The notes under the pieces were generated by a model, which was given only the letters and a program-made list of their open reading frames with translations, was not told the origin of the DNA and did not search any database. Position numbers and translations under genes: made by a program. 64,000 nucleotides of DNA from the NCBI RefSeq assembly GCF_000027125.1, contig NC_017626.1, one strand, 5' to 3'. The stretch's first letter is position 1. Every line of letters begins with the position of its first letter. The DNA is from Escherichia coli 042 (lineage in GTDB: Bacteria > Pseudomonadota > Gammaproteobacteria > Enterobacterales > Enterobacteriaceae). Positions 18,793 to 23,037 of the stretch are shown here, in pieces.

Positions 18793-19941
18793 TTACCACT
18801 CTGCTACGCTGTTATCTTCATGACGCCAGAGCGGATTACGCCAGTCCGGGGCATTTTTACTGAACTCAATAACTTTAGCTTCGTCGATTTCCACGCCTAA
18901 GCCCGGTTTCGTTAGCGGTTTAAAGAAGCCGCCAACCATGCTGAAGTCTTCTTTGTTTTTCACAAAGTCGAGTAACTCCGCGCCTTTGTTGTAATGAATG
19001 CCCATACTTTGTTCCTGAAGTACGGCGTTATAGGAAACAAAGTCGATATGCAGACAAGCCGCCAGTGCAATCGGTCCGAGCGGACAGTGCGGCGCAAGTG
19101 TCACGTCATAGGCTTCTGCCATTCCGGCAATTTTGTAGCATTCGGTAATACCGCCTGCATGAGAGAGATCCGGTTGCAGAATCGAAATACCACCCGCCTC
19201 CAGCACACGTTTAAAATCGAAACGTGAGAACATGCGCTCACCCGCCGCCAGTGGAATATGCGTTTGTGCCGCCAGTTTCGGGTAGTATTCGGCTTGTTCC
19301 GCCAGCACCGGCTCTTCAATAAACAGCGGGCGATACGGCTCCAGTTCTTTAATCAGCACTTTCGCCATCGGCGCGCTGACGCGACCGTGGAAATCAAGAC
19401 CAAACTCAATCTGATTGCCAAAAGCTTCACGAATTTGTGCCACGGTGTTGACTGCCGCATCTACCGCGCGGGAGTTATCAATTAGCCCCAGCTCTTCACA
19501 ACCGTTCAGTTTGAAGGTATCGAAGCCGATTTCGCGCAGGGTTTTTATGCCGTCGATAACATCCGCCGGACGATCGCCGCCGACCCAACTGTAGGCTTTA
19601 ATTTTGTCGCGAACCAGGCCGCCCATCAGTTGCCACACCGGCGCATTCAGCACTTTGCCTTTGATATCCCATAACGCCTGGTCGATCCCGGCGATGGCGC
19701 TCATCAGGATTGGACCGCCACGATAAAATCCGGCGCGATACATCACTTGCCATAAGTCATTGATGCGCGATGGATCCTGACCAATCAAATAGTCACCCAG
19801 CTCGTGAACTGCCGCTTCCACCGTACGGGCGCGGCCTTCAATCACGGGCTCGCCCCAGCCGACCACGCCTTCATCGGTTTCAATTTTCAGGAACATCCAG
19901 CGGGGAGGTAAACGATACGTGGTAATTTTGGTGATTTTCAT
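18793..19941 (-). CDS. dgoD: D-galactonate dehydratase
   Basis: 382-aa enolase-superfamily ORF ([31 protein letters not shown]). Confidence 0.93.
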
Positions 19942-20555
19942 TGCACTGCCTCTCGATACGCCTTAACAAATGCTGCTGCCTGCTGCGCGGTGCGTTCTAT
20001 GGACTGCCCGGCGCGATAGAGATCGCTGCCTAAGCCTGCCCCTGCACAACCTGCGTCTATCCACTGCGCCAGGTTTTCTGGCGTCACGCCGCCAACGGCA
20101 AAGACTGCGATGTCCGGTGGTAATACCGCTTTTAACGCTTTGATGTATTGCGGACCAAAAGCCGATGACGGAAATATTTTCAGCGCCTGAGCGCCCGCGT
20201 CGAGCGCGGTAAAGGCTTCGGTCGCCGTCGCGCAGCCGGGGCAAACGGTCATGCCGTAGCCCACCGCACGGCGGATCACTTCACTATGGATATTGGGCGT
20301 AACGATGAGCTGGCAGCCCATCCTGGCGAGCACATCGACCTGTTCAGGTTTCAGTACCGTACCTGCGCCAATCAACGCCTTGTCGCCATACGCATCAACG
20401 ATGGCGGGAATGCTCTGCTCCCATTGTGGGGAATTCAGCGGGATTTCAACCGCGTCGAACCCGGCGTCAATCACCGCGCCAACATGCGCCAGCGCCTCGT
20501 CGGGCGTAATGCCGCGCAAAATGGCGATCAGCGGGAGTTTAGTTTGCCACTGCAT
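19938..20555 (-). CDS. dgoA: 2-dehydro-3-deoxy-6-phosphogalactonate aldolase
   Basis: 205-aa ORF, 4-bp overlap with dgoD; KDPG-aldolase-like fold by similarity. Confidence 0.9.
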
Positions 20556-21417
20556 GAGCGATGCTCCTTATACCAGCCTGAAATGCCGTGTCGCCCGCCA
20601 CCGCCGCCACGTCGCAACCCATCGCCTGAAAGGCTTGCTGGTAGCGCGCGGTCAGCGATGTTCCGGCGACAAGGGTGATGGCGTGTTGATGGGTCACATA
20701 GTCGCGCATACTGGCAACCTCTGCGCCAATCAACAAACCAGAGAGAAATTCACTGACCTGTTCGCGGGGAAGTGTTCCCAGCACATGCGAAGCGCGAACT
20801 TCAAAAAGCTGCGGCAATACGGCGGGAGCATTAAGGCCACGCTCAAGACCAGCCGCGAAGGCATCGGCAGAGTTTTCCTGCGGCGGCAAACCTGCGCCAA
20901 TCAATGAGTGATTTAACAGTAAATGATGTAATTCACCGGTCATCACGGTGCGAAAATCGTTGATTTGCTGGCTATCGGCCTGCACCCATTTGCAATGAGT
21001 ACCGGGCATAACATAAAGAGAGGAAGGAGCCAGAGCACGCGCGCCGATCAATTGTGTTTCTTCGCCGCGCATCACATTGTGGTTATCGTCATGAGAGACG
21101 CATAATCCGGGAATAATCCAGATATTGTCGCCAACCGACGTTAATTGTTCGCCAATAGACGAAAAACGGGCAGGAACAGATAAATACGGAGCAATTTTCC
21201 AGCCTACATTGCTGCCGACCATTCCTGCCATCACCACTGGCGTATTCTCTTCACGCCAGTCGGTCGTGACTTCTGCTAACACCGTAGCCGGAGATTTTCC
21301 GTTCAGGCGCGTGACGCCTGCTTCTGATTGCCTGCTGTCCAGGCAGTGGTCGCCCTGATAAAGCCAGGCGCGCAGATTGGTCGATCCCCAGTCAATTGCG
21401 ATGTAGCGAGCTGTCAT
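20539..21417 (-). CDS. dgoK: 2-dehydro-3-deoxygalactonokinase
   Basis: 292-aa ORF overlapping dgoA and dgoR; operon synteny. Confidence 0.9.
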   Translation of the reverse strand: MTARYIAIDWGSTNLRAWLYQGDHCLDSRQSEAGVTRLNGKSPATVLAEVTTDWREENTPVVMAGMVGSNVGWKIAPYLSVPARFSSIGEQLTSVGDNIWIIPGLCVSHDDNHNVMRGEETQLIGARALAPSSLYVMPGTHCKWVQADSQQINDFRTVMTGELHHLLLNHSLIGAGLPPQENSADAFAAGLERGLNAPAVLPQLFEVRASHVLGTLPREQVSEFLSGLLIGAEVASMRDYVTHQHAITLVAGTSLTARYQQAFQAMGCDVAAVAGDTAFQAGIRSIAHAVAN

Positions 21418-22103
21418 GTGATTTCCTTTAACCTTCGTGTCGAGCTGGCGATCATGGTAAGCGCCGCCTGCTCTGCCGCATCGCCGTCCTGATGCCGTAT
21501 TGCATCGAACAGCGCCTTATGTTCCTGGAGCGTTTGCGGCATGTTGGCCTCATCGCCCATCCAGGTTCGTTCAAAAACCGCCCGCTGCAACGAACTGATC
21601 GCAATGCTAAGTTGCTGTAACACCGGGTTATGTACCGACTGCAGCACCGCCTCGTGGTAGCGAATATCCGCTTCGTTAAACGCTTCGCGGTCCTGATTGT
21701 TGGCAATCATCTCGTTCAGCGCCGATTCAATCTGCGCCAGATCGCTGGAAGTCGCGCGCTCTGCTGCCCAACGGGCAATCGCCGGTTCCACCAGATTTCG
21801 CACTTCGCTCATTGCACTGATAAGCCGTGGGTCGTAGTCGTTTTCCAGCACCCATTGCAGTACGTCAGTGTCGAGGTAATTCCACTGGTTACGCGGAGCC
21901 ACAAACGCCCCGCGATAACGTTTCATTTCAATCAGCCGCTTCGCCATCAGCGAACGAAATACCTCACGGATGATGTTGCGCGAGGTTGCAAACTCCTCAC
22001 AGAGTTCCGCCTCAGCCGGAAGCGGCGAGCCTGGCACGTATTTACCGTGAACGATCTGTTTACCCAGCGTAATGACAATGCGATCGGTTTTATTGAGAGT
22101 CAT
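21414..22103 (-). CDS. dgoR: GntR/FadR-family repressor of the dgo operon
   Basis: 229-aa ORF with N-terminal GntR HTH; first gene of dgoRKADT. Confidence 0.9.
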   Translation of the reverse strand: MTLNKTDRIVITLGKQIVHGKYVPGSPLPAEAELCEEFATSRNIIREVFRSLMAKRLIEMKRYRGAFVAPRNQWNYLDTDVLQWVLENDYDPRLISAMSEVRNLVEPAIARWAAERATSSDLAQIESALNEMIANNQDREAFNEADIRYHEAVLQSVHNPVLQQLSIAISSLQRAVFERTWMGDEANMPQTLQEHKALFDAIRHQDGDAAEQAALTMIASSTRRLKEIT

Positions 22104-22167
22104 GGAGAGTCCTTGTGCTCTGTATGTTCTTCTCTACTTTACCCCGATCGATGCATAACGCGGCAAC

Positions 22168-22243
22168 TTTGTAGTACCAGCGTGATGACGTTCGCGTTTG
22201 CCGTGTGCGTAATGTAGTACAAAATTATATTGTTGTACTACAA
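22168..22243 (-). promoter_or_regulatory. dgo promoter region with three TGTA(G/C)TAC operator-like repeats
   Basis: tttGTAGTACc (22168-22178), aTGTAGTACAaa (22212-22223) and tTGTACTACAa (22233-22243, inverted copy) match the GntR/FadR-type t.GT.n.AC.a palindrome. Confidence 0.6.
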
Positions 22244-22380
22244 TTTAGATCACAAAAAGAACAATGCATAAAAAAATGACATGCGTCGGGCAGAAATCTG
22301 AAAAGGGATATCAGGCGCTAAACAGGAGGAAAAGAAGAGTATGCTTTCAACGGCTTAGCTACTCGTTTAAAGGATTAATC

Positions 22381-23037
22381 ATGAAGTTGAATTTTAAGGG
22401 ATTTTTTAAGGCTGCCGGTTTATTCCCACTGGCGCTGATGCTTTCGGGCTGTATCTCGTATGCCCTGGTTTCCCATACCGCAAAGGGTACTTCAGGAAAG
22501 TATCAATCGCAGTCAGACACCATCACGGGGCTATCGCAGGCAAAAGATAGTAATGGAACAAAAGGCTATGTTTTTGTAGGGGAATCGCTGGACTACCTTA
22601 TCACTGATGGTGCCGATGACATCGTTAAAATGCTCAATGATCCAGCACTTAACCGGCACAATATTCAGGTTGCTGATGACGCAAGATTTGTTTTAAATGC
22701 GGGGAAAAAGAAATTTACCGGCACAATATCGCTTTACTACTACTGGAATAACGAAGAAGAAAAGGCACTGGCAACTCATTATGGTTTTGCCTGTGGTGTT
22801 CAACACTGTACCAGGTCACTGGAAAACCTAAAAGGCACAATCCATGAGAAAAATAAAAACATGGATTACTCAAAGGTAATGGCGTTCTACCATCCATTTA
22901 AAGTGCGATTTTATGAATACTATTCACCCAGAGGCATTCCGGATGGTGTTTCCGCAGCATTACTGCCAGTGACTGTTACGCTGGACATCATTACTGCACC
23001 GCTGCAATTTCTGGTTGTATATGCAGTAAACCAATAA
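22381..23037 (+). CDS. yidX: Lipoprotein YidX
   Basis: ORF 22264..23037; start at [24 protein letters not shown] (lipobox), giving 218 aa. Confidence 0.82.

Follow-up and report, generated by a model that had tools for sequence, protein, structure and literature searches.

The three repeats in the DNA upstream of dgoR in Escherichia coli 042 are best read as operators for the DgoR dimer, comprising a high-affinity pair, IR1 and IR2, and a third repeat that is predicted to serve as a weaker auxiliary site. We place the probability of this reading at roughly 0.7. The feature itself is already known: IR1 and IR2 are experimentally established, and the third site has been a computational prediction since 2015. 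The window referred to throughout is the whole stretch of 64,000 nucleotides that was analysed. The genes and repeats of the locus are as follows, with dgo genes and operators read on the minus strand.

21414-22103, minus strand: dgoR, with its ATG at 22103, a 229-aa ORF and the first gene of the dgoRKADT operon, encoding a GntR/FadR-family repressor
20539-21417, minus strand: dgoK, following dgoR
19938-20555, minus strand: dgoA, following dgoK
18793-19941, minus strand: dgoD, following dgoA
22110-22114, minus strand: Shine-Dalgarno sequence AAGGA of dgoR, within the conserved block CACAAGGAC
22243-22233, minus strand: IR1 (O1), TTGTAGTACAA, a perfect inverted repeat identical to the published IR1
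22222-22212, minus strand: IR2 (O2), TTGTACTACAT, with a mismatch at the last base, equal to the published IR2 and listed in the S1 file of Suvorova et al.
22179-22169, minus strand: third site (S1 or O3), TGGTACTACAA, imperfect with a mismatch at position 2, a predicted DgoR site

The identity of dgoR was established from the RefSeq annotation of identical E. coli DNA, from alignment of the locus with K-12 MG1655, and from the domains of its product. Thousands of RefSeq E. coli genomes carry the annotation dgoK/dgoR/yidX over the 1-kb stretch. The 229-aa protein matched Pfam PF00392 (GntR, E = 2.9e-14, residues 7-68) and PF07729 (FCD, E = 2.1e-27, residues 98-218), the N-terminal GntR winged-helix and C-terminal all-helical FCD effector domain that define the GntR/FadR subfamily. 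Between 21400 and 22400 only 8 of 5435 E. coli records were at least 99% identical, the majority lying at 95-99%, and the top species-level match of the DgoR protein was Escherichia whittamii (99%); together these point to an uncommon E. coli lineage or allele.

A preliminary description of this DNA, made from its letters, had reported three operator-like strings in front of dgoR. These were located 66-140 bp upstream of the ATG, all within 73 bp. On the plus strand they read tttGTAGTACc (22168-22178), aTGTAGTACAaa (22212-22223) and tTGTACTACAa (22233-22243), with the 9-mers TGTAGTACC at 22170-22178, TGTAGTACA at 22213-22221 and TGTACTACA at 22234-22242. Each repeat is a dyad, TGTA-S-TACA, that is itself an inverted repeat, and the "inverted copy" among the three that had been described comes down to the only asymmetric base, the central G or C, of an otherwise palindromic sequence. 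The operator consensus of the FadR subfamily in the literature is TKGT-N3-ACMA. All three repeats conform to it, as TTGT-AGT-ACAA in IR1, TTGT-ACT-ACAT in IR2 and TGGT-ACT-ACAA in the third site, which bears out the GntR/FadR palindromic pattern suggested earlier, two of the three being published operators. The perfect-palindrome form of the third site would be TTGTACTACAA. Centre-to-centre distances are 21 bp from IR1 to IR2, 43 bp from IR2 to the third site and 64 bp from IR1 to the third site.

Over the whole 64-kb window the sequence TGTASTACA with at most one mismatch shows no enrichment, occurring 10 times where 6.9 +/- 2.5 were expected. When the window was shuffled under a first-order Markov model, three matches within 80 bp arose in 0 of 300 shuffles and two matches in 16 of 300, and chance was ruled out on this basis as the origin of the three-site cluster. 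Elsewhere in the window, the same 11-mer as IR2 (TTGTACTACAT) occurs at 33324-33334 within a 548-aa ORF (32019-33665), and two more 9-mers with one mismatch lie at 33406 and 33562. By chance, 64 kb should contain about one such 11-mer, and the isolated copy at 33324 was accordingly attributed to chance.

IR1 and IR2 have been characterised experimentally. The published IR1, 5'-CTAAATTGTAGTACAACAATAT-3', from the Chaba laboratory papers is identical to 22248-22227 of the window on the minus strand, and in the same papers IR2 is described with one mismatch. In that work DgoR is an autorepressor with D-galactonate as its effector, and the dimeric protein represses the operon through two closely spaced inverted repeats over a D-galactonate-inducible promoter. 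The published DgoR EMSAs used a 55-nt probe said to span both inverted repeats, with no mention of the third site. The same picture was reached independently by Sort-Seq and DNA-affinity mass spectrometry (Belliveau 2018 PNAS): Sort-Seq gave a dgoR-dependent repressor footprint at -140 to -110 relative to the ATG, and the DNA-affinity mass spectrometry of DgoR was done on -145 to -110. The EMSA and footprint-type tests that the preliminary description had proposed are therefore already in print for IR1 and IR2. Reg-Seq (Ireland 2020) took the dgoR promoter as one without undiscovered sites.

The third site entered the literature as a prediction. Suvorova, Korostelev & Gelfand 2015 (PLoS One 10:e0132618, S1 file) give the DgoR sites of E. 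coli b4479 as CTAAATTGTAGTACAACAATA, TAAGTTTGTACTACATTACAC and CACGCTGGTACTACAAAGTTG, the last being the predicted third site of E. coli. Three sites each are also listed there for E. fergusonii, Enterobacter 638, Cronobacter, Klebsiella, Shigella, Serratia and Salmonella, so that a three-site prediction for E. coli and seven other Enterobacterales has been public since 2015. No experiment on binding to the third site was found in the literature searched, which for the Chaba laboratory comprised its papers later than the 2019 primary study (Singh et al.).

A comparative approach was used to examine the conservation of the three sites. The comparison set held 80 loci, one genome per species, with DgoR orthologues of 79-99% identity; 79 were usable and with the window made 80 sequences, and conserved islands were read from a MAFFT alignment of the dgoR-proximal intergenic DNA. 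The first island joined TTTTTGTGATCT and IR1; those that followed were IR2, the third site, GGTAAAGTAG and the region of the Shine-Dalgarno sequence. The three sites stand at about -139 (IR1), -118 (IR2) and -75 (third) in almost all loci. The IR1 11-mer was perfect in 75 of 80 sequences, IR2 was present with 1-2 mismatches at a fixed offset of +21 bp from IR1 in 79 of 80, and the third site was found with 1-3 mismatches in 78 of 80, in both Enterobacteriaceae and Erwiniaceae. Conservation at orthologous loci, as expected of a DgoR operator, was therefore observed for IR1, IR2 and the third site alike. A count of background matches in the locus flanks (23) was discarded as probably inflated, since about 10 loci carry the dgoR upstream region at non-default coordinates, beyond the range that had been excluded.

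The third site was the top-conserved 11-mer of the leader, ranking 1 of 98 with a mean of 0.91 against 0.69 +/- 0.12. The 32 bp that separate it from IR2 are only 30-60% conserved, and the spacing is nonetheless kept, at 43 bp in 71 species, 42 bp in 6 and 44 bp in 1. The distances of 21, 43 and 64 bp correspond to about 2, 4.1 and 6.1 helical turns, and the spacing of 42-44 bp in 78 species has to be read against the small number of indels leader-wide. The third site was also unchanged in 8 diverse genomes of E. coli, although these vary elsewhere in their promoter regions. These data weigh on the possibility that the third repeat is a functionless copy of an operator, either decaying or arisen by chance. 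Such a copy could well be imperfect everywhere, as the third repeat is, and an equally good 11-mer does occur by chance at 33324 inside an ORF. Its retention in place in 78 of 80 sequences from two families while the flanking spacer diverged, the first rank in conservation and the result of the shuffles all argue against it, and we consider a functionless copy quite improbable.

Two side observations were made on the loci compared. One locus (L056), from an assembly titled Chryseobacterium sp. 18061, is an Enterobacteriaceae-type dgoR locus with 90% amino-acid identity and an unchanged arrangement of operators, so that contamination or mislabelling of the assembly is probable. Natural variants of IR1 exist as TTGTAGTGCAA in E. 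coli fS25a (L082) and as TTGTAGCGCAA in S. flexneri (Suvorova S1). Both alter the ACAA box and might cause partial derepression of the operon.

The pattern of conservation within the third site is that of a DgoR half-site pair. Among the 78 species, G3, T4, A5, C9 and A11 never change, while T1, T7 and A10 are kept in at least 95%, with variation limited to positions 2 and 8 and the centre (position 6). The conserved positions are those that define IR1 and IR2, namely the TKGT-N3-ACMA boxes. In 7 species the central base is changed from C to G, as expected of a site for a protein that recognises a palindrome. The 11-mer that forms the third site in E. coli (TGGTACTACAA) occupies the IR2 position in Pectobacterium, Sodalis and Affinibrenneria.

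The third site was a perfect palindrome in 0 of 78 species. The left box is weakened in 16 species, among them Escherichia, Salmonella, Citrobacter and Klebsiella, which have a base other than T at position 2 and A at position 8; in 60 species it is the right box, with T at position 2 and G or T at position 8; the other 2 species are imperfect at both positions. The states of the left and right boxes change about 5-8 times on a rough neighbour-joining tree of dgoR. Such repeated change in a site that is never perfect hints at selection for intermediate affinity, and this pattern is treated as a lead only, given a weak neighbour-joining tree and species that are not independent of one another.

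The promoter elements around the repeats were assigned as follows.

22239-22254, minus strand: class II CRP site TGTGATCTAAATTGTA, with a conserved TGTGA left half (22254-22250) and a right half that overlaps IR1
22216-22211, minus strand: -10 hexamer TACATT of P1, the galactonate/CRP-dependent promoter, with its putative TSS near 22204
22224-22229, minus strand: TATAAT, located between IR1 and IR2 and belonging to one of the overlapping RNAP sites (TATAAG in K-12)
22166-22161, minus strand: TTGCCG, probable -35 of P2 (a putative hexamer assignment), partly conserved as TTGAGG/TTGCGG and inside the -70 to -30 RNAP site
22134-22143, minus strand: block GGTAAAGTAG with the probable P2 -10 TAAAGT (22141-22136), inside the -70 to -30 RNAP site

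Several of these elements coincide with features defined by Sort-Seq. Counting from the ATG, Belliveau 2018 placed a class II CRP site containing TGTGA at -160 to -140, and also reported a sub-optimal wild-type -10 (TACATT), three RNAP binding sites that overlap one another and have a TATAAT-like logo, and an additional RNAP site at -70 to -30 that is active in wild-type cells on glucose and corresponds to about 22173-22133 in the window. TSS positions, about 22204 for P1 and about 22129 for P2, were estimated from the hexamers and from Belliveau's coordinates, and genome-wide Cappable-seq TSS data had no entries near the dgo locus. By our own count the CRP site lies 41.5-42.5 bp from the putative P1 TSS; the block TTTTTGTGATCT at the CRP site is at least 90% conserved. 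In GGTAAAGTAG the majority base reaches a frequency of at least 90% at 9 of 10 positions in the 80 sequences. The spacer between TTGCCG and TAAAGT is 19 bp, which is unusual. A scan of 22000-22450 for consensus promoters and terminators gave no matches and is uninformative, since the real promoters here, CRP-dependent or with a 19-bp spacer, are too far from consensus.

Two further observations concern the DNA between these elements. Position 22224, the last base of the TATAAN between IR1 and IR2, is T in the window, G in K-12, C in RIVM_C040753 and A in strain C7, a four-base variation that could tune one of the overlapping RNAP sites. Directly upstream of the third repeat, TCACG (22181-22185) is 60-88% conserved across genera and resembles a CRP right half-site, the matching left half being poor and unconserved.

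Relative to these promoters, IR1 is centred at about -34 of P1, where it overlaps the -35 region as well as the CRP site in its right half, and IR2 at about -13 of P1, overlapping the -10 hexamer TACATT. The third site has its centre at about +31 when counted from P1 and at about -45 when counted from P2, and lies 2 bp upstream of the putative P2 -35. This placement, in the dgoR upstream region and at a promoter, is what would be expected of DgoR operators, with the P1 and P2 hexamers being putative assignments.

The position of the third site next to P2 is also compatible with a different account, in which the DgoR sites are only IR1 and IR2 and the third repeat is kept as an element of P2 (upstream or -35-proximal) or as the site of some other factor, its resemblance to an operator being incidental. 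The repeat abuts the RNAP site at -70 to -30, the adjacent TCACG block is conserved too, no repressor signature was seen at the repeat by Sort-Seq, and the repeat always carries at least one mismatch. Against this, the conserved positions are exactly the DgoR half-site boxes, with variation at 2, 6 and 8; the centre flips from C to G in the manner of a palindrome; the identical 11-mer stands at the IR2 position in other genera; and dyad symmetry is not expected of a promoter element. We therefore regard this account as unlikely.

Since the third repeat lies inside the transcribed P1 leader and the repeats are in principle mutually complementary, it was also considered whether the third repeat is conserved for a fold of the dgoR 5' leader RNA, in which it might pair with that portion of IR2 that is transcribed. 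RNAalifold returned 0 consensus pairs for 23 diverse leaders, and the leader of the window, at -20.7 kcal/mol (z = +0.25), was matched or bettered by 111 of 200 shuffles. A conserved leader RNA structure was rejected on these results as an explanation of the third site and has very little chance of being correct.

The reading of the three repeats as DgoR operators, by comparison, joins the published mechanism at P1 to a predicted role for the third site. IR1 and IR2 cover the -35 and -10 of P1, which is CRP-activated and D-galactonate-inducible; bound DgoR excludes RNA polymerase and D-galactonate releases DgoR from both sites. The third repeat would act as a weaker auxiliary operator in the transcribed leader, probably on a helical face shared with IR1 and IR2 and directly upstream of the -35 of a conserved weak promoter, P2, that may be the source of basal dgoR transcription. 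Support comes from the conserved block GGTAAAGTAG beside it, which coincides with the experimental RNAP site at -70 to -30. A DgoR dimer centred at about -45 of P2 would be expected to collide with sigma region 4 or with the C-terminal domain of alpha, and the simplest role for the site would then be to damp basal dgoR transcription when DgoR is high. DgoR at this site could in this way throttle P2 and provide a second tier of autoregulation at higher DgoR levels; alternatively, it might stabilise the repression complex at P1 or act as a roadblock. A strong effect is argued against by Sort-Seq in glucose, in which the repressor signature was confined to -140 to -110 (Belliveau 2018). With P2 active in the wild type and no such signature at the third site, any repression from it must be weak under those conditions. 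Further points against the auxiliary role are the imperfect palindrome in all 78 species, the 19-bp spacer that the P2 hexamers require and the view taken of the promoter in Reg-Seq.

A more specific form of this reading can be offered tentatively, with distinctly less than an even chance of being right: the third repeat may be a selected sub-optimal operator, such that IR1 and IR2 silence P1 while a weak site at the P2 -35 caps repressor synthesis at high DgoR. This two-tier proposal is drawn from the left or right box being weakened in every one of the 78 species, with the states switched several times on the rough tree. As for the earlier suggestion of multi-site autoregulation of the dgo operon by DgoR, its core is upheld by the published binding of DgoR to IR1 and IR2 and the published autorepression, and the third member of the set is a predicted site that is strongly conserved in the 80-sequence comparison.

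The arrangement may be set beside other repressors. In LldR, also of the FadR subfamily, operators O1 and O2 flank the lldPRD promoter, upstream and downstream of the start, and cooperative action or looping has been proposed for these two sites, which are more than 100 bp apart. The dgo region differs in that its three sites fit into 75 bp and two of the three cover the core promoter. The lac repressor combines a strong main operator, O1, with the weak auxiliary operators O2 and O3, which possibly raise the local repressor concentration. LacI belongs to a different family and is a tetramer, unlike DgoR, for which the literature gives a dimer, and a 43-bp loop would be very tight. NanR, of the GntR/FadR family, binds three tandem GGTATA repeats (cited in the DgoR literature) and so resembles DgoR as a FadR-family repressor with three sites at one promoter; its sites are direct hexamer repeats bound cooperatively side by side, whereas those of DgoR are separate 11-bp inverted repeats.

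The closest known counterpart is the dgo cis-acting element of E. coli K-12 (Singh et al. 2019 J Bacteriol 201:e00281-18; Belliveau 2018), which is the same locus and has identical copies of IR1, IR2, third repeat, CRP half-site and downstream -10 block. The window differs from it by 3 substitutions over the 200 bp that precede the ATG, and one of these turns the K-12 TATAAG into a perfect TATAAT. The published K-12 model has two operators, not three, whereas the regulon of Suvorova 2015 holds exactly these three sites for E. coli b4479; the latter is a computational prediction and is silent on promoter position, affinity and the always-imperfect third site.

The dgo operator region is a well-studied model of a GntR/FadR sugar-acid regulator and has served as a "gold standard" promoter in Sort-Seq/Reg-Seq. 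The experimental model has two operators, and the published and present comparative data support a third, conserved and weak one near a conserved second promoter. If borne out, this third operator would refine quantitative models of dgo autoregulation in an organism whose colonisation of the gut is affected by D-galactonate use.
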